This document shows positions 7,487-51,848 of a DNA stretch of 62,042 nucleotides, in pieces (position 1 is the first letter of the stretch; each line of letters opens with the position of its first letter). The notes beneath the pieces are model-generated. The model did no database searches. It was not told where the DNA came from and saw nothing but the letters and a program-made list of their open reading frames with translations. Source of the stretch: an uncultured Candidatus Saccharibacteria bacterium (GTDB lineage: Bacteria; Patescibacteriota; Saccharimonadia; Saccharimonadales; JACDBH01); NCBI GenBank assembly GCA_964642275.1, contig CAZXOA010000004.1, forward strand, positions 1 to 62,042, written 5' to 3'. The position numbers were made by a program, and so were the translations under genes.

Positions 7487-7551
7487 GTTTACTGTTTACT
7501 ATTCACGGAAATGGCAAATGTACAATGAAAGATTAATGGTAAACGGTAAAC
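7487..7551. repeat. Inverted pair of heptamer doublets: (GTTTACT)x2 and (GGTAAAC)x2
   Basis: Left array at 7487-7500 and right array at 7538-7551. The right array is the reverse complement, GTTTACC x2. 12/13 complementary. Confidence 0.7.
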
Positions 7552-7552
7552 T

Positions 7553-8167
7553 TTACTTCTTCTTGCTCTGATTGGTTTTGCGCTTTTTATAGTCTGGATA
7601 GCGCAGCTCTTGGCGCTTCTGATCTAGGCGGACAATGTATTTTTCGTACGGTTTCAGCAGACTGCTGTACTGCCAGTTTGGCGCCAGCACGTGGAGTAGC
7701 TTGTTCTGCTGGTCCAGATGCTCTATAAGCGTATAAAAATCACCATCGCCAGAGACAATCAGCGCCTTGTCATAATTCTTGATTTCCTTCATGACATGCA
7801 AGACAAGATCGGCGTCAACATTCCCCTTCATAGGAACCTTTTCCTTCTCTGGCTTGTCAGCATCGGTCTTCTGAGTACTATCATCGGATTTTGGTTCTTC
7901 CGTATGGAACATCTCAAGGGTTGGCTTCAGAACAACCAAAAAGCCCTGCGAATGCAACTGGTCATACAGCTTCTCAAAATCCGGCATATAGCCGATAAAC
8001 ATGAAGGCTTTTTCGACGTTGTATTCGGCCTTCAGCCATTCGCGGAACTTTTTCCAATCCATCTTCCAGCCCATTTTTTGGGTGCCAAGATTGAGGTTCT
8101 GGCTATCGATAAACGCGTAGTTCGCCAGCTTTTTAGCCGGTTGTTTCTTTTTTCTAAAAGGTCTCAT
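7553..8167 (-). CDS. NYN-domain (LabA/DUF88-like) protein
   Basis: N-terminal AFIDSQNL and a central VSGDGDF motif typical of NYN/LabA. 204 aa. Confidence 0.8.
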   Translation of the reverse strand: MRPFRKKKQPAKKLANYAFIDSQNLNLGTQKMGWKMDWKKFREWLKAEYNVEKAFMFIGYMPDFEKLYDQLHSQGFLVVLKPTLEMFHTEEPKSDDSTQKTDADKPEKEKVPMKGNVDADLVLHVMKEIKNYDKALIVSGDGDFYTLIEHLDQQNKLLHVLAPNWQYSSLLKPYEKYIVRLDQKRQELRYPDYKKRKTNQSKKK

Positions 8168-8217
8168 AATTTACAGATATAGTAGCACGCGGGTACACAA
8201 AGCCCCTATTTTATTAC

Positions 8218-8226
8218 ATTATAGCA
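8218..8226 (-). promoter_or_regulatory. Extended -10 promoter TGCTATAAT upstream of the NYN gene
   Basis: Reverse complement of 8218-8226 is TGCTATAAT, about 50 nt upstream of ATG 8167. Confidence 0.45.
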
Positions 8227-8248
8227 TACTTGTGCAAGTTATGCAAGC

Positions 8249-8800
8249 CTACTCGGCCCTTACCTGCTTTGCGGCTTCTTGACCAATATCCTCGTACTTT
8301 TCCCATGGGTACTCTATCCAGTTTGCAGTCTCTTCAATATACCAGTCGGGTACAAGAAGGCTTGTATTTCGGACTGGTTTGAAATGGAGCACACCGAATC
8401 GCACCAAGGCTGACCCCGCCTTTTGGTGGTACTCATGTGCAAACTCAGTTGTACCACCAGTGTCATGCACTTCGTCAAGGTGAATCCAGTTCTTTCCGGC
8501 GAGCATATCAGGATCGGGCATTTGCCCCACCTCTATGCTGTCTGATGCCTGTGTCGAACCCTCTGGATACAAGCCCAACCCCATGTTAAATAAGTTCTGG
8601 CCACGAAATCCGAGGCACCGTGCAACAGTATTCGCCACAGCTAGACCCCCACGAGATGCAAATGTAATACCATGGAATCTCTCATTTGTATCTGCACAGT
8701 GCTGAGTTATCTTCTGTGCAAGCTGGAAGCACATCTCGTCGATCTCATCATTGGATGGTGAAACTTTCTCAATTACCATACTACCGTTTGTCTCGGCCAT
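8249..8800 (-). CDS. Purine (xanthine/guanine-type) phosphoribosyltransferase
   Basis: PRPP-binding loop HLDEVHDTGGT and the C-terminal WIEYPWE motif of Gpt-like PRTases. 183 aa. Confidence 0.75.
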   Translation of the reverse strand: MAETNGSMVIEKVSPSNDEIDEMCFQLAQKITQHCADTNERFHGITFASRGGLAVANTVARCLGFRGQNLFNMGLGLYPEGSTQASDSIEVGQMPDPDMLAGKNWIHLDEVHDTGGTTEFAHEYHQKAGSALVRFGVLHFKPVRNTSLLVPDWYIEETANWIEYPWEKYEDIGQEAAKQVRAE

Positions 8801-8846
8801 AACCCCTCCTGTTTTGCTTCATTGTACCCGACTAAAGCGCTACTGC

Positions 8847-9389
8847 CTAGACACCGCGTAGGCGGCGTTCGAGCACGTCGTAACCTTCGTGCTCTTCGTC
8901 TTTTCTATCAAGCCCAAGCTTTTCGAAAAAACTCCATAGTTCAGCAACTACCGTATCGTGGTCTGCATCATCTTCCATCAGCATTTCGGCCTCGATAAAG
9001 CCGCCCAAACCCGGTACTTCATCCACGCAAATTTCTATATCCCCATACCTGCCCTTTTGGCGGATTTTTGTCAGGTCTGAGTACAATTCGTACCCTAAAT
9101 TTTGGATAATCAAACCTAATTCTTGGGCGTCTGCCACCTCTGTTTCGTGCTCGATACTATCCAGGCTGCCGATATTTTGTTTCTTGAGCGTAAAGATAGT
9201 TTTGGTATCATTTTCGGTGCGGATTCTGAGCCAGACCGAACCGGGTGCATTGTCCTCTACACCCGGCCACGAATAAACCACGTCATGCTGTTTCTTCGGC
9301 TCGCTTAGTTTTATGCCAAGCTTGTCAATTGCCTGCAGCGTCGCAGCCCTGTCCCGCAGCCGGCATTTTATTTCAATTTCTCTTGCCAC
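8847..9389 (-). CDS. CYTH-domain protein (CyaB/triphosphate tunnel metalloenzyme family)
   Basis: N-terminal EIEIK signature, with WLRIR and EIC.DEV motifs. 180 aa. Confidence 0.8.
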   Translation of the reverse strand: MAREIEIKCRLRDRAATLQAIDKLGIKLSEPKKQHDVVYSWPGVEDNAPGSVWLRIRTENDTKTIFTLKKQNIGSLDSIEHETEVADAQELGLIIQNLGYELYSDLTKIRQKGRYGDIEICVDEVPGLGGFIEAEMLMEDDADHDTVVAELWSFFEKLGLDRKDEEHEGYDVLERRLRGV

Positions 9390-9390
9390 T

Positions 9391-10668
9391 TTAGAGTTCT
9401 TCTATCTTGACGCGCTTCTGCTCGGTTGTATCGCGGTCGCGCACCGTAACGGTGCCGTCTTCGAGTGTCTCAAAGTCTATCACGACGCAGTACGGTGTAC
9501 CGATTTCGTCCTGGCGGCGGTAGCGCTTGCCGATGTTGCCATTGTCGTCCCACATGACGCTGCCGTATTTTTTCTTCATCACTTGGTAGACTTCGCGGGC
9601 CTTCTCTACCAGCTCGGGTTTGTTTTTGAGCAGCGGGCTGATTGCCATTTTCACCGGTGCAATGTCTTTTGCCAGCTTGAGCACGATACGATCATTTGCC
9701 TCGTCGTACTCATATGCACTCAGCAGCACTGCCATAACCAAACGCTCCACGCCAAAGCTTGGCTCGATCACGTGCGGCACAAAAGCTTCGCCGCCGTCTT
9801 TTGGGCGGTATTCCATCTTTTTGCCGCTTTCGTGCTGGACATTCTGCAGGTCAAAATCGGTGCGGTAAGCCAGACCAAGCAGCTCGTCGCGGCCATGGGG
9901 GTATTCAAATTCATAATCGATCGTGCGCTTGCTGTAATGTGCCAGATCATCTGCGGGCACTTCAAGCTCATGTACTTTCGACACATCAACGCCAGCGGCC
10001 TGTAGATAAGCCTTGATGTCGGTACGCCACTGCTCAAACAGCTCCTGCCACTGCTCTTCACGGATAAAGTACTCGATTTCCATCTGGTTGAACTCGCGGC
10101 TGCGGAATACAAAGTCTCGCGGGCTAATCTCGTTACGGAACGCCTTGCCCACCTGCGCGATACCAAACGGTACGTCTGGATACAGCGTATCAACGACATT
10201 CTTGAAATTGGTAAAGATGCCCTGGGCTGTCTCTGGGCGCAAATAGACTTTTGCTTCATCGGTCGCCACCGGCCCGGCAACCGTCTCAAACATCAGGTTG
10301 AACTGACGGGCTTCGCCAAAAGTCCCTTCTTTGCCGCAGTTCGGGCATTTACTAAGATCAATTTTATCTTCGCGAAAACGCGATTTACACTCAGAACACT
10401 CAACCAGCGGATCGGTAAAGGTGTCGACGTGGCCGCTTGCCTTCCAGGTACGAGGATTCATAAGTATGGCTGCATCCAGTCCCACCATGTCATCACGGTC
10501 TTCTACAAATGTCTTCCACCACAAATCCATCAGATTCTTCTTGAGTTGAGCGCCAAGAGGACCATAGTCCCATGTACCCGCTAGCCCACCATATATTTCA
10601 GAACCCTGAAAAATAAAACCTCTGCGCTTGGCCAGCGCCACAATATCATCCATTTTTGCTTCACTCAT
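9391..10668 (-). CDS. glyQS: Glycine--tRNA ligase (dimeric class II)
   Basis: N-terminal RRGFIFQGSEIYGGLAGTWDYGPLG and class II motifs. 425 aa. Confidence 0.95.
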   Translation of the reverse strand: MSEAKMDDIVALAKRRGFIFQGSEIYGGLAGTWDYGPLGAQLKKNLMDLWWKTFVEDRDDMVGLDAAILMNPRTWKASGHVDTFTDPLVECSECKSRFREDKIDLSKCPNCGKEGTFGEARQFNLMFETVAGPVATDEAKVYLRPETAQGIFTNFKNVVDTLYPDVPFGIAQVGKAFRNEISPRDFVFRSREFNQMEIEYFIREEQWQELFEQWRTDIKAYLQAAGVDVSKVHELEVPADDLAHYSKRTIDYEFEYPHGRDELLGLAYRTDFDLQNVQHESGKKMEYRPKDGGEAFVPHVIEPSFGVERLVMAVLLSAYEYDEANDRIVLKLAKDIAPVKMAISPLLKNKPELVEKAREVYQVMKKKYGSVMWDDNGNIGKRYRRQDEIGTPYCVVIDFETLEDGTVTVRDRDTTEQKRVKIEEL

Positions 10669-10912
10669 ATAGCAACAGTATAGCGCACACTACGGCTGTG
10701 GTACTACTTTGGGACGAGAATATTTTCGCTGATGACCGCGCGAACGAAAACGGCTTGGTTCAGGAGATATAACAAGCGGCTCGCCCGTTATCGCTGACGT
10801 TGCTTCGGGCACTGGATATCGCTGGTCTACTGATTGCCTGAATGCTACTTCAGCCACATAGTTTCTGAGGGGCAACTGATTTGTTGTATTGGTCATGATA
10901 CGACGTTCAAAA

Positions 10913-11074
10913 TCATCTGCAACAAGTCCGTGTTGCACAATGATTGCACCCGCTAGGTTTAGCTACCTCTGCACTCGCTTGGCTTGCTTCACGGTTAATT
11001 CTGTCTGCTTCGGCAACAGATGGTGTCGGCGCTTCTTGCAGAGCCGCAATCCTATCGAAATCTTTATCATCCAT
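10913..11074 (-). CDS. Candidate small protein (53 aa) with a Cys-rich C-terminus
   Basis: An ATG lies 3-6 nt after an extended -10 box TGTTATAAT (reverse complement of 11081-11089). The peptide ends GCNHCATRTCCR. No homology recognised. Confidence 0.25.
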   Translation of the reverse strand: MDDKDFDRIAALQEAPTPSVAEADRINREASQASAEVAKPSGCNHCATRTCCR

Positions 11075-11112
11075 CATTATATTATAACAAATATGGTTAT
11101 TTATGTCAATAT

Positions 11113-11802
11113 TTACTGCGGTAGGTATTGTTGCTTGAGCGATTTTACCAGCAGGGTAAGGTCTGTGCAATACCCTGCAATACCCTGCACAGCCAGCAGC
11201 TTCTGCGGAGAGTTAAACGCCAGCAGCTTTAATACCTTGAGATGATTCTTATTGTATATACCGTCTGTGCGTTCGCTGAACGACACAGACTCATAATCAA
11301 AATCATAAGAGCTGTCCGGGTTAAGCCCTCCGCCCTTTGCATCAGTCGAAAAATCCGGCACATGGCCAAGCAGTTGCAGCATTCGCATTGCAAACGAAAG
11401 CTCTGCCAGCAACACCGGTATTCTGCTGTCATCCAGCGCCGCCAGAGACTCGTTTAGTATCTGAAAATAATCCTGTCCTGTTGCATCTTCTATCGTCTTA
11501 TCGACCGATTTGAGCATACTGTATGCCAGCTCGGTGCGCTGCAGGTCTTTGACAATATCGCTATAGTGTGCCATAAGCCGTGTGGACATGAGGGTATCGA
11601 TATCGCCCTTGCCTTTTATAAAGTGAATTTCTGAGACGCTGAATAATTCAATGCCGCCCGCCATTTTGCTTTTCTGGCGGCGCACACCTTTGGCAATGAC
11701 GCGAATCTTTCCAAAATCACTCGTTAGCAGTGTGATAATCCTATCGGCCTCGCCGTAGTCCAGCCGCCGCAGAATAATGCCCTGAGTAGACAATGATTTC
11801 AT
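11113..11802 (-). CDS. recO: DNA repair protein RecO
   Basis: N-terminal OB-fold signature GIILRRLDYGEADRIITLLT. 229 aa. Confidence 0.9.
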   Translation of the reverse strand: MKSLSTQGIILRRLDYGEADRIITLLTSDFGKIRVIAKGVRRQKSKMAGGIELFSVSEIHFIKGKGDIDTLMSTRLMAHYSDIVKDLQRTELAYSMLKSVDKTIEDATGQDYFQILNESLAALDDSRIPVLLAELSFAMRMLQLLGHVPDFSTDAKGGGLNPDSSYDFDYESVSFSERTDGIYNKNHLKVLKLLAFNSPQKLLAVQGIAGYCTDLTLLVKSLKQQYLPQ

Positions 11803-12179
11803 CGTGACGCCGTAGTCCTGCCCACGATCTGCAGGAGTTTTTCCAGCGTCACATCCGGTTTGTACAGCACTGCATGCACGCCCAGACTGCGCTGCAGGTC
11901 TTGGTCTGCCGCGAGCTCATCCGCCTGTGCCCGGCTCAAAATCAGAGCTGGAATGTGCTGCCACTCTCCGTAACTGCGGAATTCGTACAGAAATTCGACT
12001 CCGCTGTGTGCGGCTAGTAACACTTCCAGTATAACGAGATCAGGGGGCGTTGCGTCGGCACCAAGTATGGCACTCTGTGCGTCATGGCACACGGTGACCA
12101 TATGCCCGGCTCCAAGCAGAGCTGTCTCGTATTGCCGGGCAAGGATGACGTCTGGTTCAAGTAAGAGTATCTTTGCCAT
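11799..12179 (-). CDS. Single-domain receiver (CheY-like) protein with an atypical phospho-site
   Basis: Receiver topology with conserved S (ALILS) and K (LYKPD). The expected DD pocket reads EPD, and the phospho-Asp position reads DLVILE. It overlaps the recO start by 4 nt. Confidence 0.8.
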   Translation of the reverse strand: MAKILLLEPDVILARQYETALLGAGHMVTVCHDAQSAILGADATPPDLVILEVLLAAHSGVEFLYEFRSYGEWQHIPALILSRAQADELAADQDLQRSLGVHAVLYKPDVTLEKLLQIVGRTTASR

Positions 12180-12181
12180 AA

Positions 12182-12880
12182 CTACACAAGACTGAGCTGG
12201 CGGCTTGGTATGAGCGTTGCCACAAAGCCGCTCCGCTGGCCCCGCCGGGACAACTGCATTGATGCCCCCATAGTTTGAAACAACTTATCGGCAACAAATA
12301 CCCCGGCGCCGTTGGTGCTTGTAAATCCTGCAAGCGGCTGATGAGATGCGCCCAGGAGCCGATGAGCTCTCTCGACGAGCTCGGCACTCAAATCAACACC
12401 ATCAGCAAAAACACCCACAGCTAGCCCTTGTTGTGTTTTTTTGAGCGACAATGTCACGACACGCTTCTTTAGGCTGCTGGTCGCGTCAACAAAACTATAC
12501 CCAAGATTAGTCAGTGCCAACCGCACTGCCTCGCGGTGCACAAGCGCTGGGCCGTATTTGCCGCGCACATCAAGCTCTACGCTGCAGCCTTTTGATGAGG
12601 CGTAGCCGCTAATTGACTGCGCCACGTCAAACAGGAGCGAGCTTATTGATGCCGAGCCATAAGAAAGCTCTGCCTCCCGCTGCAAGCGCACCTGCAGTAA
12701 AAACCCATCAATAAGACTAATGGTGGATTCGCTCGCTCGCCGGATAACCTCACGCTGACCCGGGTCATGATCAAGAAGCTCGTTGGCGCGAGCAATCTGC
12801 ACGAACGGCAGCTTAACCTGTTCGGCCAAACTCAGAAAAATCTGATAATCATCAGATACATCATGCCTGTGCGCCTTCAA
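12182..12880 (-). CDS. Sensor-less histidine-kinase-like protein (degenerate HisKA and HATPase_c)
   Basis: H-box-like FLSLAEQVKLPF aligns with SHELRTPL with no His at the expected position. N-box-like LALTNLGYSF and G2-like NGAGVFVADKLF are present. 232 aa. Confidence 0.6.
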   Translation of the reverse strand: MKAHRHDVSDDYQIFLSLAEQVKLPFVQIARANELLDHDPGQREVIRRASESTISLIDGFLLQVRLQREAELSYGSASISSLLFDVAQSISGYASSKGCSVELDVRGKYGPALVHREAVRLALTNLGYSFVDATSSLKKRVVTLSLKKTQQGLAVGVFADGVDLSAELVERAHRLLGASHQPLAGFTSTNGAGVFVADKLFQTMGASMQLSRRGQRSGFVATLIPSRQLSLV

Positions 12881-12973
12881 ATTATCCCCTCCTGCACGAA
12901 CTATCCCGTGCTTTCATACATCTTTTAGTATAGCACGCAGCAGACAGGGCCCGTAAGACCTCATCGTGACCCC

Positions 12974-13624
12974 CTATGGAATAAATGTTGCTTGTGCGAG
13001 TATTGACTCAAAATCTGTCCGGAACTCGCTGCCTTCGGTCCAAAGTTTTATTGTTTTGTCACGCAATGGCAGCAAGACAAGCACGCCTTGTTTACGAGAA
13101 GTAATCTCGCCCTCCAACCGTGAGCCAAGCGTCTCTTCCCGGCCCGGTAAGCGATAGGCAGACACCGAGATGCGTCCGTTGCGCACCTTGCTGTCGAATG
13201 CCCGAAGCTCTTGTTCATACTGTCTCTCAACAACCTGGTATCGGAGAGCATAGTTCACGCTACTATCGTCTGATGATACATAGGATGGATGCATAATGCC
13301 GTCTACCGGAGTATTTCCGCTACCCCGTTCGTTGACATAATTGCTCCATGTCTTTGGGTAAGTAATCGATAGCGTACCAAAAGCCCCCGGGCCTCTGTAG
13401 GTCACATTGGGAAGCTTGTAGCTTTCGGCAAATTCTGCGTCTTTTTTGATAGCTAGATTTTCTTCTGCTACAACAACCGCTTCTGTGATTTTCTGGTCAA
13501 CGTTGTTTTTGTAATCTTGGCGCCCCATGTAGGCCCAAATACCAAAGCCAATACTCCCCACCAAAAAAACCGTCACTATAACAAGTGGAATGAGCAACTC
13601 GCCTCTTTGATCTAGCTTATGCAT
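12974..13624 (-). CDS. Hypothetical N-terminally anchored extracytoplasmic protein
   Basis: 216-aa ORF with one N-terminal TM helix (LIPLVIVTVFLVGSIGFGIWAY). No family recognised. Confidence 0.55.
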   Translation of the reverse strand: MHKLDQRGELLIPLVIVTVFLVGSIGFGIWAYMGRQDYKNNVDQKITEAVVVAEENLAIKKDAEFAESYKLPNVTYRGPGAFGTLSITYPKTWSNYVNERGSGNTPVDGIMHPSYVSSDDSSVNYALRYQVVERQYEQELRAFDSKVRNGRISVSAYRLPGREETLGSRLEGEITSRKQGVLVLLPLRDKTIKLWTEGSEFRTDFESILAQATFIP

Positions 13625-13678
13625 ACCTACGGTACATAGTACAGAGTAGAAGGTGCAAAGTAAAGACTCGGGCTGCGC

Positions 13679-14176: not shown

Positions 14177-14179
14177 ACC

Positions 14180-17774: not shown

Positions 17775-17798
17775 TGAAAAATAACCACTGTAAAGCGG

Positions 17799-17911
17799 TT
17801 ATTCTGAGCCAAAGGTAATTTGTTATCAGACGAGGCACCATTCTGGAAGCGTATATACCATACGATGGAAGAATGTCCTTGGCTGAGAGCAAATTACCAT
17901 TCTCAGAATAA
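17799..17911 (+). ncRNA. Long imperfect hairpin element, copy A (candidate structured RNA or leader upstream of rpmA). Strand not established.
   Basis: Basal stem TTATTCTGAG/CTCAGAATAA. Middle stem GGTAATTTGTTATCAG/CTGAGAGCAAATTACC (15/16 paired). Apical stems CATTCT/AGAATG and CGTAT/ATACG. About 74% identical to copy B, with compensatory changes. Confidence 0.45.
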
Positions 17912-17934
17912 GCGCGCGCATAAAGGAACAATAG

Positions 17935-20357: not shown

Positions 20358-20462
20358 ACCCCTTATGCTACCTCAGAGAAGAGAAATTTTCAATTTACAT
20401 TTCTCATTCCACCCTCATTCTTCATTCTGCACTGGATGACCCTACGCCACTGTCAAGCAACC

Positions 20463-20574
20463 TTTTTCAGCCAAGGGGTAACTTGTTCTAAGATGAGGCT
20501 TCCACTCTGGAAACGTATAGTGAAATACGATGAAAGAATGTCCTCACCTTAGAACAAATCACCACTCCGAAAAT
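20463..20574 (+). ncRNA. Long imperfect hairpin element, copy B (paralog of copy A). Strand not established.
   Basis: Same architecture as copy A. Basal stem TTTTCAG/CCGAAAA. Middle stem GGTAACTTGTTCTAAG/CTTAGAACAAATCACC (14/16 paired). Identical apical CGTAT/ATACG and AGAATGTCCT core. Confidence 0.45.
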
Positions 20575-20586
20575 ACTTGCGCGCTG

Positions 20587-33309: not shown

Positions 33310-33321
33310 CCGTGGAACTTA

Positions 33322-33349
33322 TTTTTCATTTATCATTTCATATTTCACA
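33322..33349. repeat. 7-nt-periodic array TTTTTCA TTTATCA TTTCATA TTTCACA
   Basis: Four consecutive TTTNNCA-type heptamers in the hpf-secA spacer. Confidence 0.55.
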
Positions 33350-33410
33350 ATAATTCTTCGTATGACGCGTGATACAAGGGAGTGTGCATTGAAACCTAGA
33401 ATATGAAGCT

Positions 33411-35986: not shown

Positions 35987-36691
35987 TCAAGAGGCAAGCT
36001 TGGTTGCTGCTGCGACGGCGGCGGTTTCGGCTCTTAGGGTGAGGTTGCCGAGGTGGAAGTGCCCTGCGCCCGCTTCTGCAAATTCTGCTAGCTCTGCCTC
36101 GGTCCAACCGCCTTCGGGACCGATGAAAATCCCACAGGGATTTTCAATATTTGATATTTGATATTTGATATCTGAGAGTGTTTCGTCGCAAACCAGTAAT
36201 TGAACTTCATCTTTATATGTTCCGAGCGCCTTGGTCAGCGTTATCGGCTCGCGCACAAGGGGTATGTCTGAGCGGCCGCACTGCTCTGCTGCCTCTATAA
36301 CAATCGTCTCGGCCCTCTCAAGATTAAAGCCGGTTTTCTCTGACCGGGCTGCAATAATTGGCACGAAGGTTCGTACGCCAAGCTCGGTGCACTTTTGCAA
36401 TACCCAGTCGTTCTTATCTTTCTTCAGCAAGCTGAAGAAAAGATATATGTGCTTTGCAGGGAGTTTGCGCTCAAATTCGGTCACCATCTCGAGCTTGATA
36501 CCGCCCTGGGGTTCGATGGTGGCAATTTTGTATAATCTCTCGGTTTCGACCCCGTCAAAAAGCACCAGCTGGTCGCCCTCGCGGTAGCGCAGTACGCGCA
36601 GCCACTGGTTTTTGAGGCGCTCGTCATTGACCCATAAACTTTGCGTGAGCTCCAGGTCTTCTGGCCTGATATAAAAACGGTGCAGCTTCAT
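35987..36691 (-). CDS. rsmE: 16S rRNA (uracil1498-N3)-methyltransferase
   Basis: MKLHRFYI N-terminus, PUA-like domain and FIGPEGGWTEAE motif. 234 aa. Carries a heptamer-array insertion. Confidence 0.9.
   Translation of the reverse strand: MKLHRFYIRPEDLELTQSLWVNDERLKNQWLRVLRYREGDQLVLFDGVETERLYKIATIEPQGGIKLEMVTEFERKLPAKHIYLFFSLLKKDKNDWVLQKCTELGVRTFVPIIAARSEKTGFNLERAETIVIEAAEQCGRSDIPLVREPITLTKALGTYKDEVQLLVCDETLSDIKYQISNIENPCGIFIGPEGGWTEAELAEFAEAGAGHFHLGNLTLRAETAAVAAATKLAS
36147..36174. repeat. (ATATTTG)x4 heptamer array inside rsmE (sense strand AAATATC-type)
   Basis: Units at 36147-53, 36154-60, 36161-67 and 36168-74 (last unit ATATCTG). Encodes DIKYQISNI. 36145-36171 is the reverse complement of 51705-51731. 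Confidence 0.9.
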
Positions 36692-37311
36692 TACACGACC
36701 TTGCTTATTCTGAGAATATCATCTGGTGTCAGGGCCAAGACATCAGGCTCTTTGCTGGCAAGCTCTTCTTTGCTTGCAAAGCCCCATGTCACTGCAACTG
36801 ATTTTACACCGGCCACCTTGGCGGCACGAATGTCTGTGGTTTCATCACCAATATAAAAGATATCACCTGTCATTTTTTGGCGACGCATCATTTGTTTCAT
36901 GAGATTGTCTTTGCCAAACAGTCCTGCCCCGCCTTTGACCACATGAAAGTACTGGCTGAGCGAATTTTTGATTAAAAACCTTCTGATATTTTTGCCGCTG
37001 TTGCTGCTGATAATGTAAAGTTTATGGCCCTGACCGTCCAGTGTCGTGATGACTTCTGTCATACCAGCAAAAGCACGCAGGTCATCCATGTGCGCACGCA
37101 TCACCCGGCGGCCCTTGAAAAACAGGAATGGAAACTTCCAAACCGGTATACCCATCTGCCGGGCCATGGTGGGCATTGATTTGTGCCGGAAGCTCTCTGC
37201 TTCTTTACCGTACGGCTTCTTTCGCCCAGCTTCTTTGCTGAGAAACCCCAAGACATAATCGAAGCTGTCGACAATGGTCCCATCAAAATCAAAGATGTAG
37301 TTCACTGACAT
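36691..37311 (-). CDS. HAD-superfamily phosphatase (phosphoglycolate-phosphatase-like)
   Basis: FDFDGTIVDS motif I and C-terminal GDETTD motif. 206 aa. Confidence 0.85.
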   Translation of the reverse strand: MSVNYIFDFDGTIVDSFDYVLGFLSKEAGRKKPYGKEAESFRHKSMPTMARQMGIPVWKFPFLFFKGRRVMRAHMDDLRAFAGMTEVITTLDGQGHKLYIISSNSGKNIRRFLIKNSLSQYFHVVKGGAGLFGKDNLMKQMMRRQKMTGDIFYIGDETTDIRAAKVAGVKSVAVTWGFASKEELASKEPDVLALTPDDILRISKVV

Positions 37312-37321
37312 AAATTATACA

Positions 37322-37398
37322 GGGTGAAGGGTGAAGGGTACAGGGTGAAGGATGGGGCCACCTCCTTGACCCTGAACCCTCTGCCCTAGACCCTTTCG
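37322..37398. repeat. Inverted arrays of AGGGTNN heptamers: (GGGTGAA)-type x5 facing (CCTNNNC)-type x5
   Basis: Plus-strand G3 tracts at 37322, 37329, 37336 and 37343. C3 tracts at 37370, 37377, 37384 and 37391. The arms are largely complementary around a 7-nt spacer between the arrays (about 12 nt unpaired). The element spans the msrA stop to the HAD start. Confidence 0.85.
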
Positions 37399-37883
37399 TA
37401 GGGCACATGGCACATGCCGCGGCCCGTCCGCTCCGTGAACTTCTGGTGGTAGTCTTCTGCCTCCCAGAACTCACGCCCCACGGCGATACGAGTGGCGATG
37501 GGTTTGTCAGAATTCTGTTGCGCCTCCGCCTTTGCTTCTTCGGCCAACTGCTTCTGCTCCTCATTCTGATAAAAAATTGCTGAGCGGTACTGGGCGCCAA
37601 TATCAGGCCCCTGCCTGTCCACCTGCGTAGGATTGTGCATGCGGAAGAAGTGCTTGAGCAGAGTTTGATAATTTACAACTCCAGGGTTAAAGGCAATGTG
37701 CACAGCCTCGGCGTGTCCGGTATCAGTGCCGCAGACCTGTTCGTATGTCGGCTCTTTTGTCCGCCCGCCAGTATAACCAACCAATGTTTCAGTCACACCA
37801 GGAACTTGATCAAAATAGTACTGCACACCCCAGAAGCACCCGGCAGCAAACACCGCCACCTGTGGCGTATAAATCTCTTTCAT
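37386..37883 (-). CDS. msrA: Peptide methionine (S)-sulfoxide reductase
   Basis: Active-site GCFWG motif near the N-terminus. 165 aa. Confidence 0.95.
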   Translation of the reverse strand: MKEIYTPQVAVFAAGCFWGVQYYFDQVPGVTETLVGYTGGRTKEPTYEQVCGTDTGHAEAVHIAFNPGVVNYQTLLKHFFRMHNPTQVDRQGPDIGAQYRSAIFYQNEEQKQLAEEAKAEAQQNSDKPIATRIAVGREFWEAEDYHQKFTERTGRGMCHVPYERV

Positions 37884-38186
37884 CTATTCATTGACCGTTA
37901 CGTCTCTCCAGAAGGCGACGTAGTTGCTGAAATCCTTTTTGACGATGTCGAGCGCGCCCGGCAATGGCTCTGGATAGCTGAAGGCTGCATCCTGGCTCCA
38001 GTCGTCACCTTGGCCGACGTTAAAGTACTGGCAGTCGCCCTTCCAGGGGCAGTGATAGGGCGTATCTGACTTCTGTAGGAACTCTTGCTTGACCGAATCC
38101 GGCGGGAAGTACCAGTTGCCCTCGATATAAATCAAATTGTCCTTGTCAGCCTCCGCTATGACTTGGTCTTTCCAGATTGCTTTCAT
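37884..38186 (-). CDS. DUF427-domain protein
   Basis: IEGNWYFP and CPWKG..QYFNV motifs typical of DUF427. 100 aa. Abuts the msrA start. Confidence 0.8.
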   Translation of the reverse strand: MKAIWKDQVIAEADKDNLIYIEGNWYFPPDSVKQEFLQKSDTPYHCPWKGDCQYFNVGQGDDWSQDAAFSYPEPLPGALDIVKKDFSNYVAFWRDVTVNE

Positions 38187-46152: not shown

Positions 46153-46293
46153 GCTGGGGAGTAGTATAAAGCCTTTGCCGGGCTTGGTCCAGTACTCTGT
46201 CTCATCCCGCTAAGTACACAACACACCAATTATCTCACAGTATACCAAATTTCTTATGCTTTGTCAATGTCTTTAGCAGAGTATCCCCTTGCC

Positions 46294-47022
46294 TTATTTG
46301 CCAAAGCGGCGCTGGCGTTTGGCGTATTGCAGCAGGCAGAGTTTGAGGTCTTGCTTGTTAAAATCCGGCCAGTATTTGTCGACAAACATATACTCTGCAT
46401 AGGCCGCACGCCATAGCATAAATCCGCTCGTTCGATACTCGCCAGAAGTACGAATCACTAAGTCAACCGGCGGCAGATCCGGCTCATTCAGGGCGTCTTC
46501 GAATTCACGCACGCTCAGGCGCTTTGGATCCACGTTGTGGCGCAGCAGCTTCTTGGCGGCATCGACAATCTCTTGCTGGCCGCCGTAGTTGATACACAGC
46601 GCCAAGGTTCCGCGCGTAAAATGCTCTGTGTGTTTCACCGCTTTATCGATCGCCTTCAGCACATCTTTTGGCAAGCCTTCGCGCGAACCAACATGCACAA
46701 TGCGTATTTCGTTTTCTTCAATATCTTTCATATAGATATCCAGAAACCGGATAATGAGCTTCATCAGAAGTGTCACCTCGGTCTTGGACCGCTTCCAGTT
46801 TTCGGTAGAAAAAACAAAGGCGGAGACATATTTGATGCCTGCATTAATAGCCATAATACCTATACGCTTGAGTACATCGGCACCCTCGTAGTGGCCTTTG
46901 GCAGCGGGCAGGCCTTGATCTGTTGCCCAGCGTCGATTGCCGTCCAGTATCAGGCCAAGGTGGTCTGGCAAGACAAATTTCGGGGACGAAGCTTCTGGGT
47001 GCTTGCGGGAGAGCAATTTCAT
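46294..47022 (-). CDS. uppS: Isoprenyl transferase (undecaprenyl diphosphate synthase)
   Basis: HLGLILDGNRRWA and IRTSGE.R.S.F.LW motifs. 242 aa. Confidence 0.95.
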   Translation of the reverse strand: MKLLSRKHPEASSPKFVLPDHLGLILDGNRRWATDQGLPAAKGHYEGADVLKRIGIMAINAGIKYVSAFVFSTENWKRSKTEVTLLMKLIIRFLDIYMKDIEENEIRIVHVGSREGLPKDVLKAIDKAVKHTEHFTRGTLALCINYGGQQEIVDAAKKLLRHNVDPKRLSVREFEDALNEPDLPPVDLVIRTSGEYRTSGFMLWRAAYAEYMFVDKYWPDFNKQDLKLCLLQYAKRQRRFGK

Positions 47023-47039
47023 GGTTGCCTGTTCATGGC

Positions 47040-47603
47040 CTAAACGGTCATGATTTCAGCCTCTTTGGTCTTGGCGGATGTATCGACTTCTATCTGCTGC
47101 TTTTTCATCGCATCTTCGATGCCTGCGCTCAGGCGCTTGGCATCATCTTCGCCAATTTCTTTGTCCTTTTTGGCAGCGTCGATTGCCTCCATAGCTTCGC
47201 GGCGCACGCCGCGCAAAGCGATATTGCAGTCCTCTACTTTGCCGCCGAGCTGTTTGACAATTTCGCGCCTTCGCTCTTCTGTGAGCGCCGGGATTGGTAC
47301 ACGCACCACCCGGCCGTCATCGCTTGGGTTCAGCCCTAGGGAAGGATTATCACGAATAGCAGTGACAATCGCCTGCAGATTGCTCGGGTCAAACGGCGTA
47401 ATCTGCAGCAGCTGAGCCTCTGGGGTGGTAATGTTGCTGACCTGATTAAGCGGCGTTGGCGCACCATACGCAAGCACCATCACGCCATCGAGCATGCCCG
47501 GATGAGCACGGCCGGTACGGATTTTTTTTAGCTCTTCTATAAAGTGTTCGTAAGCCCGTTTGAACTTTGCCTCTGCATCACTGACTACTTGGTTTGGCGT
47601 CAT
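47040..47603 (-). CDS. frr: Ribosome recycling factor
   Basis: Typical RRF sequence (IRTGRAHPGMLD, LNPS.DG..VRVP.P.LTEERR). 187 aa. Confidence 0.96.
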   Translation of the reverse strand: MTPNQVVSDAEAKFKRAYEHFIEELKKIRTGRAHPGMLDGVMVLAYGAPTPLNQVSNITTPEAQLLQITPFDPSNLQAIVTAIRDNPSLGLNPSDDGRVVRVPIPALTEERRREIVKQLGGKVEDCNIALRGVRREAMEAIDAAKKDKEIGEDDAKRLSAGIEDAMKKQQIEVDTSAKTKEAEIMTV

Positions 47604-47605
47604 AA

Positions 47606-47827
47606 TTATTGGTCTCCCTTAACGATGTTACTTGGTGTTTGTCGAACATAACATTCAGAGTGATAATTTCCTCCACCATAATCGGGAATAATCCCTGCAT
47701 CAAATACGGTCTCCACCTCTCCATCCAAAGATCCATCACCACTTACTACTTGAGGAACATCTGAAAAAACATGCGTTGGTATATCCTCAGGATCTCCCTC
47801 CCAGCCCCATGAAACATATTCACTCAT
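47606..47827 (-). CDS. Small acidic hypothetical protein (73 aa) in the position usually held by pyrH
   Basis: SD GGGAG lies 6 nt upstream of the ATG. It ends 2 nt before the frr start. No family recognised. Confidence 0.5.
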   Translation of the reverse strand: MSEYVSWGWEGDPEDIPTHVFSDVPQVVSGDGSLDGEVETVFDAGIIPDYGGGNYHSECYVRQTPSNIVKGDQ

Positions 47828-47872
47828 AAATTCTCCCGCTACTTAAGCTGCTCTAATTGTAGTGCAGTGCAA

Positions 47873-47922
47873 GAAAAAAACGAAGCCCGCAAACGAGCCG
47901 TATTGAAATACGGTGAGTGCGG
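47873..47922 (-). terminator. Rho-independent terminator downstream of tsf
   Basis: Nested stems CCGCA/TGCGG and CCGTAT/ATACGG (47887-47922), followed on the minus strand by GCTTCGTTTTTTTC. Confidence 0.7.
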
Positions 47923-47964
47923 ACTGGAGTTTTTGCCGCAGGAATGTGCTGCAAAGTAGGCAGT

Positions 47965-48555
47965 TTAAGCTACTTCGCCGAGGGCGATGCGTGAGAAGCG
48001 GCGTACCACGACGTTTTCGCCGAGCCGGGCGTTGTGTTCTTTTACATAGCCACCGACTGTTTGGTCGGGGTTCTTAATGAACGGCTGGTCCAGTAGACAG
48101 CGCTCGGCAAAGTACTTGTTCAGCTGGCCTTCGACAATCTTGTCGGCCATGTCGGCTGGCTTGCCTTTGAGGGCGTCACCGGCAAGCAGTTCCTGCTTTT
48201 TGGCTTCGCGGGCTTCGGCTGGAATTTCATCAGCCGATACAAACTCGGGGTTTGACGCCGCAATGTGCATGGCCACATCCTTGACAAGGTCAGTAAAAAT
48301 CTCGTTGCGAGCCACAAAGTCGGTCTCGCAGTTGACCTCTACAATCACGCCGATGCGGCTGTCATGATTATATGTGCCGACGAGACCTTGGCGGGCTTCG
48401 CGCTCGCCACGCTTGTCGGCTTTGGTCAGACCTTTTTTGCGCATAGCCTCGAGCGCCTTGTCGAAGTCGCCGTTAGCTTCTTCAAGCGCCGCTTTGGCGT
48501 CGGTCAGGCCTACGCCGGTTAGTTCTTTTAGTCTCTTTATATCTTCAATGCTCAT
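47965..48555 (-). CDS. tsf: Elongation factor Ts (short form)
   Basis: UBA-like N-terminus IKRLKELTGVGLTDAKAALEEANGD. The start was trimmed to ATG 48555. 196 aa. Confidence 0.93.
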   Translation of the reverse strand: MSIEDIKRLKELTGVGLTDAKAALEEANGDFDKALEAMRKKGLTKADKRGEREARQGLVGTYNHDSRIGVIVEVNCETDFVARNEIFTDLVKDVAMHIAASNPEFVSADEIPAEAREAKKQELLAGDALKGKPADMADKIVEGQLNKYFAERCLLDQPFIKNPDQTVGGYVKEHNARLGENVVVRRFSRIALGEVA

Positions 48556-48564
48556 ACTACTCTC

Positions 48565-48683
48565 CATTTGCGATTGACCATTGGCAATGGGCAAAATATG
48601 CGCAATTGACTATTAGCGATGCAGCCTCATCGTCAATTGCTAATCGCCAAGCTTTTGCTAATGGCAAATTGTTAATTGCTAAT
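48565..48683. repeat. 7-nt-periodic inverted arrays and a central palindrome filling the rpsB-tsf spacer
   Basis: Left array is CATTTGC GATTGAC CATTGGC AATGGGC (48565-48592). Right array is TGCTAAT GGCAAAT TGTTAAT TGCTAAT (48656-48683). Central hairpin is GCAATTGA/TCAATTGC plus CGATG/CATCG (48602-48640). Confidence 0.7.
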
Positions 48684-49414
48684 TATTTTTCTTCTGCTTC
48701 TTCAGTCTTATCGGCTGGCTTTGCGGCCTTTGCTTTGCCGGCTTCGATTGCGCTCTTTACGTACTCGGCAATCAGCTCAAGTGTCTTTATGGCGTCATCG
48801 TTGCTTGGGATCGGGTAGGTAATGTCAGCAGGGTTCGTATTGGTGTCGCAGATTGCAACGATTGGCAGACCGAGCTTCTTGGCCTCGAGCACCGCGTTTT
48901 TGTCGTGCCCTGGGTCAAACACAAACACAGCACCGACACGGGCGTGCATGTCTTTGATGCCGCCGTAGAGCACGTTCATAGCGTCAATTTCTTCCTGGAA
49001 ACGCTGGATTTCAAGCTTGTTGTACTTCTTGGCAAGCTCACCGCTCTCCATCTTTTCTTCAAGATTTTTGAGGTGCTTGATGCGCCCGCCAATAGTGTTT
49101 TGATTGGTCAGCATACCGCCGGCCCAACGATCAACAACAAACGGGTTGTTGGTATCAACTGCAAGCTGCTTGGCAATCACCTGCGCTTGGCGCTTGGTGC
49201 CGACAAACAGTATCTGTCGTCCAGCCGCAGAGGTCTGTGTGATAAAACCCAGGGCTTCTTCGAGCTTCTCAACCGTCTTTGTCAGGTCGATAATATGCGA
49301 GCCGTTCCGCTTGCTGTGGATATATTGCGCCATGGCCGGGTGCCAACGGCTAGTTTTGTGGCCAAAATGCGCGCCAGCCGACAATAGCGCCTTGATGTCT
49401 ACTTGCGTAGCCAT
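48683..49414 (-). CDS. rpsB: 30S ribosomal protein S2
   Basis: Typical S2 sequence (LLSAGAHFGH, GTKRQA) with a Lys/Glu/Ala-rich C-terminal tail. 243 aa. Confidence 0.97.
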   Translation of the reverse strand: MATQVDIKALLSAGAHFGHKTSRWHPAMAQYIHSKRNGSHIIDLTKTVEKLEEALGFITQTSAAGRQILFVGTKRQAQVIAKQLAVDTNNPFVVDRWAGGMLTNQNTIGGRIKHLKNLEEKMESGELAKKYNKLEIQRFQEEIDAMNVLYGGIKDMHARVGAVFVFDPGHDKNAVLEAKKLGLPIVAICDTNTNPADITYPIPSNDDAIKTLELIAEYVKSAIEAGKAKAAKPADKTEEAEEK

Positions 49415-49530
49415 ATGTTTCTCTCCTTGTTCTTCGTCATGGGTACCTGTGGAGCCCTACATAGGCTATCCGCAGGAGGATTCTGTCCCGAGACTGCTTA
49501 ATTAGTTACTTGTTTATTCTAACAGGTGTG

Positions 49531-49559
49531 TTGACCTATTGCAACAGATGGGCTATACT
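49531..49559 (+). promoter_or_regulatory. Sigma-70-type promoter of rpmE (TTGACC, 17-nt spacer, TATACT)
   Basis: -35 at 49531-49536 and -10 at 49554-49559. The ATG at 49570 is only 10 nt after the -10, implying a very short leader. Confidence 0.65.
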
Positions 49560-49569
49560 AGCCTAGATT

Positions 49570-49902
49570 ATGAAAAAAGATCTCCACCACAAAGACTACC
49601 GACTTGTCGTGTTCGAGGACCTCAATAATGGCACTCGTATCCTGACACGATCCACAGTCGCATCAGAAGAAACTGTCAAATGGGAAGATGGCAACGAATA
49701 CCCGCTGGTAAAAGTACATATCAGTAGTAGCTCTCACCCGTTCTTCACAGGCGAAGAGCGCATCGTTGACATCGAAGGCCGCGTTGACAAGTTCAAGGCC
49801 CGCGCCGAAGCTGCTAAGAAAGCCCGCGAAGCCAAGCAGCCGAAAAAAGCCCGTAAGTCAGAAGACAAGGCCGAAGCAGCCAAAAAAATCGGCGCCCGTT
49901 AG
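49570..49902 (+). CDS. rpmE: 50S ribosomal protein L31, type B (no CxxC zinc motif), with a basic C-terminal extension
   Basis: [15 protein letters not shown]...HPFFTG pattern of type B L31. 110 aa. Confidence 0.92.
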
Positions 49903-49915
49903 CGACCACGAAACC

Positions 49916-49948
49916 AAAAACCGCCCTACCGAGTAGTGGCGGTTTTTT
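49916..49948 (+). terminator. Rho-independent terminator after rpmE
   Basis: AAAAACCGCC...GGCGGTTTTTT stem-loop with a U-tract. Confidence 0.75.
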
Positions 49949-49966
49949 ATATACTTGAGGATGAAC

Positions 49967-51022
49967 ATGCAAGAAAAATCACAAACATACCGATCTGAAC
50001 TCACCGAACTGGAATCCAAACTGCAGGATCCAGGCATCTTCAGCACACCCGAATACCCTAAACTTGCAAAACGGCTTAGCGACCTGCAAGAGCTCGTTGG
50101 ATTGTTTGACGAGATCGCAAGGCTGCGGGCTCAGCGGACAGAGGCAGAAGAGCTGGCGCGCGGTAATGATGAAATGGCAGAGCTCGCCCAGGCAGAGCTC
50201 CAAGAAATTGATACGAAACTACCCGAACTTGAGAGTAGATTGCAGGAAGCACTGACACCAAAAGATCCCAACGACGAGCGCAATGCTATCTTCGAAATCC
50301 GCGCCGCAGCCGGCGGTGATGAATCGTCCTTATTCGCCGCTGAGCTCTACCGCATGTATGCCCGCTTCTGTGAAACCCACAACCTCAAGGTAGAGCTTCT
50401 GAGCGAGAGCCCCTCAGACGCTGGCGGATTTAAAGAGATCAGCTTCATCGTCCGAGGAGTCGAAGCTTACGGCCAGCTCAAATTCGAGGCCGGTGTGCAG
50501 CGTGTGCAGCGCGTCCCGGCTACCGAATCTCAGGGGCGTATCCATACCAGCACCGTCACCGTTGCCGTGCTGCCCGAGGCAGAAGAATCAGATATAGAGA
50601 TCAAAGATAACGACCTACGCGTCGATGTCTACCGCAGCGGCGGCCACGGCGGCCAGTCCGTCAACACCACTGACTCGGCCGTCCGTATTACGCACATCCC
50701 AACTGGTATTGTCGTTACCAATCAGGACGAAAAATCTCAGATCAAAAACAAGCTCAAAGCCATGAGTGTGCTGCGAAGCCGCCTGCTCCAGAATAAAATT
50801 GATGAAGAAAATGCCAAACTATCCGCCCAGCGCCAAAAGCTCATCGGCAGCGGCGACCGCTCAGAAAAAATCCGAACCTATAATTTCCCGCAGGATCGTA
50901 TCACCGATCATCGTATCGGCTACAGCCGGTCAAACATCCCCGGTGCCTTGAGCGGCCAAATCGACGACCTCATAGAAGAACTCAAAAAAGCCGAACACGA
51001 ACTGCTTGCAGATGAAGGCTGA
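49967..51022 (+). CDS. prfA: Peptide chain release factor 1
   Basis: PAT tripeptide (RVPATES) and a GGQ motif (GGHGGQSVN). ATG 49967 is preferred because GAGG lies 6 nt upstream. The ORF opens at TTG 49955. Confidence 0.96.
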
Positions 51023-51848
51023 AGCTTGGCTTGCTAGGGCTGCTAAAGAGCTTGGGTCCAGCGGTATATCGACTGCACGACTGGACGCTCTAGTTTTACT
51101 TGAGGACGCCACTGGTAAAGACCGGGCTTGGATACTTGCCCATACTGGCTTTGAGTTGCAAGCTTCCAATGTACAAAAACTAGATAAACAGATAAAGCGT
51201 CGGGCAGCGCACGAGCCGTTGGCTTATATCCGCGGCAAGAGCGAGTTCTATGGGCGGGAGTTTAAGGTGACGCCCGCTACACTGCAGCCGCGGCCGGAGA
51301 CAGAGACTATGCTTGAACTGCTGTTCGAGCAAGTTGAAAGTGGGAAGTTGAAAGTGGGAAGTGTCATAGATGTGGGTACTGGTTCCGGGGCGATTGCCAT
51401 TACAGCCAAACTGGAGTGGCCAGAGGTAAATGTTTACGCTACAGAAATCAATGGGGATGCGCTGGAAGTTGCCAGACAAAACGCCCGGAAGCTCGATGCA
51501 GACATACAGCTTTACCAAGGCAACTTGCTAGAGCCCTTGACATCTGGAATCTGGAATCTGGAATCTGGCAAGTTGGCGATTCTTGCCAATTTACCCTACG
51601 TGCCGGACAGCCACACGATCAACCAAGCCGCTATGCAGGAACCGAAGGTCGCGATTTTTGGCGGCGAAGACGGATTAGATCTTTACCGCGAGCTATTCAC
51701 TCAAATATCAAATATCAAATATCAAATATTGGTCATGTTGACCGAGTCTTTGCCCTTCCAGCACCAAGCGCTGGCGGACATCGCCCGGACAGCAGGATAT
51801 GAGCTGCAACAAACTGAGGACTTCATCCAGATTTTCTGTCCAGCTTAG
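51006..51848 (+). CDS. prmC: Release-factor glutamine N5-methyltransferase PrmC/HemK
   Basis: Motif [12 protein letters not shown] and an NLPYV (NPPY-type) motif. It overlaps the prfA end by 17 nt. It carries three internal short-unit tandem arrays. Confidence 0.88.
51331..51363. repeat. 14-nt (2 x 7) unit AAGTTGAAAGTGGG x2.4 inside prmC
   Basis: Units at 51331-44 and 51345-58, partial unit at 51359-63. Encodes [10 protein letters not shown]. Confidence 0.9.
51542..51569. repeat. (ATCTGGA)x4 heptamer array inside prmC
   Basis: Units at 51542-48, 51549-55, 51556-62 and 51563-69 (last unit ATCTGGC). Encodes SGIWNLESG, just before the NPPY-type motif. Confidence 0.9.
51702..51729. repeat. (CAAATAT)x4 heptamer array inside prmC, same unit as the rsmE array
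   Basis: Four perfect units at 51702-51729. Encodes QISNIKYQI. 51705-51731 is identical to the sense strand of 36145-36171. Confidence 0.9.

Follow-up and report, generated by a model that had tools for sequence, protein, structure and literature searches.

Tandem arrays of seven-nucleotide units (heptamers) are known from several bacterial lineages, and we describe here such arrays in a 62,042-nt contig of an uncultured Candidatus Saccharibacteria bacterium (CAZXOA010000004.1, assembly GCA_964642275.1; the whole stretch is hereafter called the window), where they occupy intergenic spacers as well as the coding sequences of prmC and rsmE. The short tandemly repeated repetitive (STRR) sequences of heterocystous cyanobacteria, credited to Mazel et al. 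in 1990, are said to comprise a few defined units, CCCCAGT, TTGGTCA and CAACAGT, each present in many copies. The bacterial heptamer excess was noticed in 2007, and detailed studies of it are few. According to the summary of Mrazek, Guo and Shah (2007) given in PMC4679880, heptamers are the commonest class of long simple-sequence repeats (LSSRs) in many bacteria; the genomes highlighted there are those of Burkholderia, cyanobacteria, actinobacteria and Xanthomonas, and units of a multiple of three nucleotides are the likeliest to lie in coding regions. The proposed cause is slippage of the polymerase in a 7-nt register (Mrazek 2007, as summarized in PMC4679880 and PMC4692102). In Xanthomonas and Nostoc, the G-rich GGGNATC or GGGGA(C/T)T repeats lie mostly in spacers that separate co-oriented open reading frames (ORFs), at most ~50 bp from a stop codon, and seldom between divergent ORFs (Rehm et al. 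2015, PMC4692102). They prefer four units, occur singly or as inverted pairs, and vary in length and sequence among close relatives at conserved positions (PMC4692102). TAACTGA direct repeats have been reported from marine Beggiatoaceae, some cyanobacteria and Bacteroidetes (MacGregor 2015, PMC4679880).

Tandem Repeats Finder (TRF) reported period-7 arrays in the window at 7482-7500 (TTACTGT ×2.7), 36147-36175 (ATATTTG ×4.1), 37321-37351 (AGGGTGA ×4.4), 48655-48684 (TTGCTAA ×4.3), 51542-51568 (ATCTGGA ×3.9) and 51701-51729 (TCAAATA ×4.1), and returned 51331-51363 as the 14-mer AAGTTGAAAGTGGG ×2.3, which equals 4.6 heptamers. Partner arms on the opposite strand, read from the sequence, lie at 7536-7551, 37352-37398 and 48565-48600. 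Exact runs of at least three copies numbered three at period 7, with lengths of 25-32 nt, and zero at every other period from 5 to 15. Runs of at least two exact copies numbered 11, whereas order-3 Markov shuffles gave 3.8 ± 2.0 and reached 11 once in 200. A mismatch-tolerant scan requiring at least 17 of 21 matches gave five segments at lag 7, two at lag 14 and none at the remaining lags of 4-15; with the threshold at 16/21, lag 7 rose to eight and the non-harmonic lags to 0-1. Lags 6, 9 and 12, which codon periodicity favours, showed no enrichment. The period-7 arrays of the window are real, longer than composition predicts and with 7 as the predominant period, as in Mrazek-type LSSRs, whose units measure 5-11 nt. 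The units vary from locus to locus, and what the arrays have in common is the 7-base period and a size of about four copies.

The excess extends to other members of the lineage. The comparative set comprised ~1.2 Mb from 80 other Saccharibacteria species, taken as 20-kb loci centred on prmC, in which genes were called by longest-ORF heuristics. Exact runs of at least three copies occurred 18 times at period 7 and 0-3 times at the other non-harmonic periods of 5-15. TRF arrays scoring at least 50 numbered 16 at period 7, five at period 14, four at period 21 and at most six at any other, and the lag scan gave 44 at lag 7, 28 at lag 14 and 1-8 elsewhere. A 50-kb control from E. coli K-12 contained no arrays. 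In 50 kb of Nostoc PCC 7120 plasmid alpha there were two, (AATTCGC)n and (GCGAATT)n, paired in inverted orientation within an intergenic spacer. Array counts were over-dispersed between genomes (chi2 249, 80 degrees of freedom, p 3e-19), and genomes with an array in prmC were likelier to hold arrays elsewhere (odds ratio 9.8, p 6e-4); these two results point to a genome-level propensity rather than independent selection at each locus. The trait is strong in some Saccharibacteria genomes, absent from others and concentrated in a subset; for each species, the genome-wide array density is an extrapolation from 5-20 kb around prmC.

A sequence-only reading of the window had listed nine heptamer loci and taken them as a window-wide STRR-like set. 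Seven are solid period-7 arrays, whereas 33322-33349 has decayed (16/21) and 20415-20428 is at chance level; the set is likewise real as an excess of period 7, here and in 80 species, but it is not one sequence family, since the units are locus-specific. That reading would have been undermined by a period-7 density no higher than that of periods 5, 6, 8 or 9, and we found the reverse in the window (5 versus 0 in the lag scan) and in the 80 loci (44 versus 1-8), together with the enrichment over shuffled controls that it had proposed to look for. Its assignment to a reduced-genome lineage agrees with the homologues of PrmC, Tsf and RsmE, the top ones all being from Candidatus Saccharibacteria / Saccharimonadales (closest PrmC 66-68% identity, closest Tsf 96%), as are all 80 related loci by their annotation in a collection of species-representative genomes. 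Its suggestion that no equivalent had been described for lineages of this kind is supported, since among the papers open to full-text search none tied heptamer repeats to Saccharibacteria, to Patescibacteria or to the candidate phyla radiation as a whole. The precedent it cited, the STRR heptamers of heterocystous cyanobacteria, is echoed by the pair in our Nostoc control, although the heptamer excess is not confined to that group and includes Xanthomonas and many other bacteria (PMC4679880, PMC4692102).

When set beside the described systems, the arrays appear, by sequence comparison, to be a known kind of repeat in a new phylum, namely heptameric simple-sequence repeats outside the strict STRR, TAACTGA and GGGNATC families. 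Like the LSSRs of Mrazek and colleagues, as summarized, they over-represent the 7-nt unit relative to neighbouring lengths and are sporadic in their phylogenetic distribution; unlike what is summarized from that survey, which is older than the candidate phyla radiation genomes, they lie in frame in housekeeping genes and recur in the same loops. Their anatomy matches that of the Xanthomonas and Nostoc repeats almost point by point (PMC4692102), and at a single locus, the 37321-37398 pair, they share with them the capacity to form G-quadruplexes (G4) on both strands. In contrast to the one dominant unit family there, nearly every locus here has its own unit, mostly not G-rich, and the coding share is larger; tandem GGGAATC, GGGGATT or GGGGACT arrays are absent, the G-rich unit being AGGGTGA. 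With the cyanobacterial STRR sequences the arrays share heptanucleotide tandem units that are dispersed and often intergenic, but there is no small set of defined units, the host is a member of the Saccharibacteria instead of a cyanobacterium, and tandem CCCCAGT, TTGGTCA or CAACAGT occurred neither in the window nor in the 80 loci. The TAACTGA repeats are similar in forming short arrays (2-6 copies there), mostly intergenic near gene boundaries and including ribosomal-protein operons, yet they are a single unit placed just upstream of starts in essentially direct orientation, whereas we find many units, 3′ ends and inverted pairs (PMC4679880). No TAACTGA arrays were present.

Units differ at almost every locus across the 80 genomes. 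One unit, TCAAATA, is found in the window rsmE, the window prmC and the prmC of a related locus (L014). As a candidate privileged unit of the Saccharibacteria we rejected it: it is widespread, and in 1.3 Mb of sequence it is not commoner than composition-matched heptamers. In the source metagenomes (runs X1 and X3, site 51700-51730), pure (TCAAATA)n k-mers reach a depth of 370-600, compared with ~10 for this genome. A scan of a metagenome collection for (TCAAATA)5 gave at least 80 matching contigs; the 80 among the matches listed are mostly low in GC (median 0.35), appear mixed in origin and carry further heptamer arrays.

Four arrays of the window lie within genes. In rsmE, the array at 36147-36175 (minus strand; sense unit TCAAATA ×4.1) encodes DIKYQISNI. 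Three arrays lie on the plus strand in prmC. Site 1 (51331-51363; the 14-mer above, with period 14 or 7) encodes 11 residues at a helix end and the next loop, just before motif I; site 2 (51542-51568, ATCTGGA ×3.9) encodes 10 residues of the loop preceding the NLPY strand; and site 3 (51701-51729, TCAAATA ×4.1) encodes QISNIKYQI. Both prmC (51006-51848) and rsmE (35987-36691) stay in frame across their arrays and align over their full length to homologues, as the sequence-only reading had claimed for the coding examples. Seven is not a multiple of three, and three units therefore span all frames and form a 7-residue cassette, e.g., SNIKYQI from TCAAATA ×3. The copies match at all seven bases though each is read in a different frame, and for this reason unit identity in the coding arrays is a phenomenon of the DNA and not of the protein. 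In an AlphaFold model of PrmC (mean predicted local distance difference test score, pLDDT, 86.8), the arrays are placed at helix ends and in loops leading into β-strands 117-121, 187-192 and 238-245.

Coding arrays are short, with a median of 4.3 and a maximum of 5.4 units, compared with up to eight units in non-coding ones; more than five units were counted in 3% of coding versus 26% of non-coding arrays (p 0.02). They are also concentrated. Array density per 10 kb is 3.9 in prmC and 1.3 in prfA versus 0.07 in the remaining genes of these loci, i.e., ~50-fold and 17-fold higher. In each of the 54 loci that measure 12 kb or more, the prfA-prmC pair (49955-51848 in the window) is encoded on the minority coding strand, which has a negative GC skew in 51 of these 54; the counter-orientation of the pair is conserved in Saccharibacteria. 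We considered whether head-on orientation causes the prmC hot spot and rejected the idea, other minority-strand genes not being enriched (0.064 vs 0.077 per 10 kb). Also rejected was a 7-amino-acid quantum in the loop lengths at prmC sites 1 and 2, where some array-free orthologues are 7-8 amino acids shorter and the length distributions are not clearly quantized.

The coding arrays turn over among orthologues. Three PrmC loops recur as array sites with differing units. At site 2, a lag-7 match of at least 0.6 was found in 12 of 83 orthologues, and no other lag attains 0.6 in any of them. At least eight units occupy this site depending on the species, among them CTACCGT, GCCCTCA, CCACCTT, TCCTCAG, ATCTGGA, GAACGAA, ACATCGA and ATATCAA, and many further orthologues carry decayed forms, seen for instance as LPSTxYxLPTT peptides. 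All 83 prmC orthologues are in frame. The segment at site 3 is 15 residues long in 72 of the 83 as well as in the window, and the L001 prmC has CAAATA twice, 21 nt apart, at positions matching the window array. Because the perfect (TCAAATA)×4.1 fills this common 15-residue segment, and L001 shows CAAATA at corresponding positions, the array has taken the place of the sequence in between, leaving the overall length unchanged. The rsmE arrays tell a similar story. The window has TCAGATA-(TCAAATA)×3, L089 (72% protein identity) has TCAGATA-TCAAGTA-TCAAGTA-TCAGATA, and L090 (70%) has TCAAATA-TCAAATA-TGAAATA-TCAAATA; the three are equal in total length and differ in their internal variants, with neighbouring units locally identical. 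The array is absent from the nearest rsmE relatives, L087 (81%) and L088 (80%), which have a non-periodic segment 9 nt shorter. To the known kind of repeat these loci add recurrent in-frame arrays in the loops of PrmC and release factor 1 (RF1), together with length-neutral homogenization.

Spacers turn over as well. The rpsB-tsf spacer measures 127 nt with its arrays in the window and 103 nt in L083 (Tsf 96% identical), where the same unit type is rearranged; the array-free spacers of L085 and L086 measure 9 and 11 nt. In L087 and L088, the msrA-HAD spacer contains ordinary hairpins and no heptamers. Slippage in LSSRs would show as copy-number polymorphism in steps of one unit. What the assembled sequences show is rearrangement at the level of units, at rpsB-tsf in the window relative to L083 and at rsmE among the window, L089 and L090. 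Taken together, the arrays arise, homogenize and vanish at tolerant sites, on the between-species time scale of this group. No indels at arrays were seen in the assembled contigs of three source runs, contigs that conceal rare variants. The contigs of a ~90%-identical strain (run X3) end at or beside all three prmC arrays, which is no more than suggestive. Two further observations concern the rpsB-tsf region: the spacer of L084 (Tsf 93%) holds a 92-codon ORF (5985-6263) without a Pfam match or heptamer arrays, and the rpsB of L086 is lengthened to 298 amino acids. The rpsB-tsf junction is an insertion hot spot of several kinds.

Outside genes, the arrays favour gene ends and inverted arrangements. 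Non-coding or gene-end-straddling arrays make up 37% of those in the window and the 80 loci, whereas non-coding sequence makes up only ~8% of the DNA. By spacer type, the non-coding arrays comprise 15 in co-directional, three in convergent and none in divergent spacers, the last accounting for 25% of spacer length, and many lie at most 25 nt from a stop codon. The sequence-only reading had placed the intergenic examples beside stop or start codons and described them as arrays paired in inverted orientation, which is correct for three of the four intergenic loci in the window and fails for 33318-33351, which lacks a partner arm. All three pairs are assigned to the minus strand. The first, at 7477-7554, consists of GTTTACT ×2 plus a partial copy on the left (7482-7500) and GGTAAAC ×2 on the right (7538-7551). 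It starts 1 nt past the stop codon (7553-7555) of a gene for an NYN-domain protein, lies upstream of a PIF1-family helicase gene, and folds with a ΔG of −15.5 as RNA of the sense strand (z −1.75) and −18.3 on the plus strand (z −2.6). The PIF1-family gene (5839-7392, minus strand) adjoins this heptamer hairpin. PIF1 helicases are G4 resolvases.

The second pair, at 37321-37398, is made of G-tracts, with AGGGTGA ×4.4 facing CCCTNNN ×5, between msrA and the start of a HAD hydrolase gene (37311); the msrA stop codon (37386-37388) falls within the right arm. The predicted hairpin consists of short AGGG/CCCU helices with a small internal loop every 7 nt and has a ΔG of −44.1 (RNA sense strand) or −49.3 kcal/mol, with z-scores of −5.2 and −5.8 and none of 200 shuffles as stable. 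At least four units, each with a tract of three or four Gs, give a G4 motif. The stretch 37322-37345 and, on the opposite strand, 37370-37393 are the sole two G4 motifs in the window, one per strand, the remaining arrays having no G-tracts. The third pair fills the rpsB-tsf spacer at 48565-48684 with inverted arrays of the TTAGCAA type (RNA sense strand). The rpsB stop (48683-48685) is at one edge and the Shine-Dalgarno sequence and start of tsf (48555) are at the other, and the fold has a ΔG of −33.3 (RNA sense strand, z −1.2) or −34.7 (plus strand, z −1.9). Similar hairpins were found in L083 and L006. None of the window hairpins has a U-tract 3′ of its stem, and a terminator scan of 36500-38000 did not report the 37321-37398 hairpin. 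The array hairpins thus differ from an intrinsic terminator, a GC-rich stem-loop followed by a U-tract; ordinary GC-rich terminators are present at other sites of the window (I5, I9). An Rfam scan of the entire window at gathering thresholds gave zero matches and ARAGORN found no tRNA in it, so the arrays do not belong to any known RNA.

Two minor features adjoin the second pair. A two-copy heptamer, GGCACAT ×2.1, lies at 37402-37416 in the 3′ end of msrA, just past the hairpin. A TATAAT / TATACT box is located ~2-13 nt upstream of the HAD hydrolase start, with no Shine-Dalgarno sequence, in five of five genomes (window 37311-37325, L087-L090), and its conservation so close to the start suggests a HAD hydrolase transcript that may have a very short leader or be leaderless.

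We consider it reasonably probable that the arrays are STRR-like heptameric simple-sequence repeats, typically of about four units, made and homogenized by strand misalignment in a 7-nt register and filtered by selection. The period-7 excess, the positions of the arrays, their turnover among relatives and the variation by genome are observed. To account for them we propose a genome-wide, lineage-dependent tendency of nascent and template strands to misalign during replication or repair, which would create arrays and then keep homogenizing their units. Loops of 7 nt are not known to be recognized by bacterial MutS. Selection would set the sites of survival. Transcribed 3′ spacers would tolerate expansion, up to eight units. 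Where an array fell in a pre-existing or emerging stem, intrastrand template switching could carry it over to the opposite arm, or it could be kept because it lengthens the stem, and the mirrored arms would give long hairpins with a bulge every 7 nt beside stop codons; these hairpins may have a role at RNA 3′ ends. Within genes, arrays would persist only in connecting loops and in frame-keeping states, reached by 21-nt changes or by length-neutral loss and regrowth. The narrow size of about four units and the perfect, length-neutral coding arrays would follow because genes pass only such changes.

Several points weigh against this explanation. Slippage is deduced indirectly, from assembled contigs. 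A single-unit slip cannot shift a coding array between in-frame states, so that steps of three units, or loss and regrowth, have to be assumed. Uniform mutation combined with generic loop tolerance would not lead one to expect the ~50-fold concentration in prmC, and the model leaves the preference for 7 nt unexplained. Of the three window hairpins, that at 37321-37398 alone clearly exceeds shuffles in stability, the other two having z-scores of −1.2 to −2.6. Nor does the model explain why only some Saccharibacteria show the trait.

Among the alternatives, the one with most in its favour treats the intergenic inverted arrays as selected functional elements, whether RNA 3′-end hairpins serving termination, mRNA stabilization or operon punctuation, G-quadruplex or cruciform DNA, or periodic regulator sites. 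It is compatible with a slippage origin, the 7-nt repeat being the way in which stems are built, and it draws on the way arrays hug stop codons (1 nt past the 7553 stop, with the 37386 and 48683 stops inside or at the edge of arrays), on the 0 of 18 non-coding arrays in divergent spacers despite their share of spacer length, on the ΔG of −44 to −49 and z of ~−5.5 of the 37321-37398 hairpin, on the recurrence of the hairpin architecture in L083 and L006, and on the arms of 37322-37393 as the only G4 motifs in 62 kb. A like positional bias was read as a functional hint in Xanthomonas and Nostoc (PMC4692102). However, orthologous spacers in near relatives are array-free (9 nt in L085, 11 nt in L086) or hold non-periodic hairpins (L087, L088), the stems lack a U-tract and went unflagged by the terminator scan in a genome that has ordinary GC-rich terminators elsewhere in the window, two of the three hairpins are marginally better than shuffles, and the coding arrays would be left without an explanation; we regard this reading as unlikely. 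Insertion of the intergenic modules as preformed inverted repeats, in the manner of miniature inverted-repeat transposable elements (MITEs), REPINs or cyanobacterial small dispersed repeats (SDRs), would fit the presence/absence polymorphism at rpsB-tsf (127 vs 9 nt), the inverted arms and the occurrence of TCAAATA in two unrelated window genes, and a repeated 125-nt hairpin element elsewhere in the window shows that such elements occur in this genome. Members of those families share sequence including their termini, whereas the three window modules share their period and no sequence, with no conserved termini or target duplications visible; moreover, units differ at nearly every locus of the 80 genomes, coding arrays swap sequence at constant length, and TCAAATA is not commoner in 1.3 Mb than heptamers of matched composition, which leaves mobile elements very improbable.

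The coding arrays might instead be contingency loci, in which a one-unit change frameshifts prmC or rsmE and switches off release-factor or 16S rRNA methylation in part of the population. Simple-sequence repeats are a classical device for phase variation (PMC4679880, introduction), gain or loss of one 7-nt unit does break the frame, and the density of arrays exceeds that in other genes 50-fold in prmC and 17-fold in prfA. Against such switching stand the in-frame state of 83 of 83 prmC orthologues, the housekeeping rather than surface character of the genes, and the lack of any indel variant in source-run contigs, though contigs hide rare ones. The arrays are also short, with about four units. 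Phase-variable loci typically have tracts well over that length, and we give phase variation hardly any credence. The idea that the repeats match by chance, or merely reflect codon periodicity or base composition, can be practically dismissed: two-copy heptamers such as 20415-20428 are indeed expected about four times per window, but the enrichment is confined to lag 7 and its harmonic 14, leaves out 6, 9 and 12, and is the same in 1.2 Mb from independent genomes. A bolder proposal, which we think decidedly unlikely, is that some Saccharibacteria possess an active 7-nt-register process, either a property of the replicase or repair machinery or a dedicated enzyme, that rewrites loops as 7-amino-acid cassettes, with PrmC and RF1 preferred, and also builds operon-punctuating hairpins. 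If it were true, the process would diversify or switch PrmC and RF1, i.e., act as a tuning knob for translation termination.

Whichever process makes them, the arrays have practical consequences. They appear to interrupt short-read assemblies precisely at prmC, create lineage-specific 7-residue insertions in conserved proteins, and give long gene-end hairpins that annotation pipelines will miss as terminators. Saccharibacteria have genomes of ~1 Mb, a reduced set of replication and repair genes and many sequenced species. Because these genomes are small, the species many and the trait strong in some and absent in others, the group lends itself to comparative work on which gene content accompanies 7-nt slippage.

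The window has a G+C content of ~51% and contains the housekeeping genes secA, hpf, rsmE, the HAD hydrolase gene, msrA, tsf, rpsB, rpmE, prfA, prmC and frr; an HtrA-like protease, the PIF1-family helicase and the NYN-domain protein are also encoded. Two weaker tracts, neither assigned to a strand, complete the period-7 inventory. The direct TTTCATN-like tract at 33318-33351, in the hpf-secA spacer, has 16/21 matches at lag 7, lacks a partner arm, gives no sign of folding (z = +0.8), and is probably a decayed period-7 array. The intergenic TCATTCN tract at 20385-20428 is marginal, decayed and near chance level: 20415-20428 consists of two exact copies, at chance level alone, and adjoins a marginal 15/21 tract at 20385-20412.

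Repeats of other kinds are also present. A long-hairpin element of ~125 nt occurs in two copies, 82% identical, at 17790-17920 and 20455-20585, with folds of −55.6 kcal/mol on the plus strand (z −7.9) and −55.2 kcal/mol on the minus strand (z −7.6). It had no match in Rfam at E ≤ 1 and may represent either a mobile element of the MITE/REPIN type or a structured RNA not described so far. A 123-nt tandem repeat (×6.9, ~74% matches) extends over 60976-61821 inside a 644-residue ORF on the minus strand (60105-62039). This ORF has weak matches to DUF6242/EPTP-like repeats and a Peptidase_S74 (endosialidase chaperone) domain, on account of which its product may be a tail-fibre-like or surface repeat protein.

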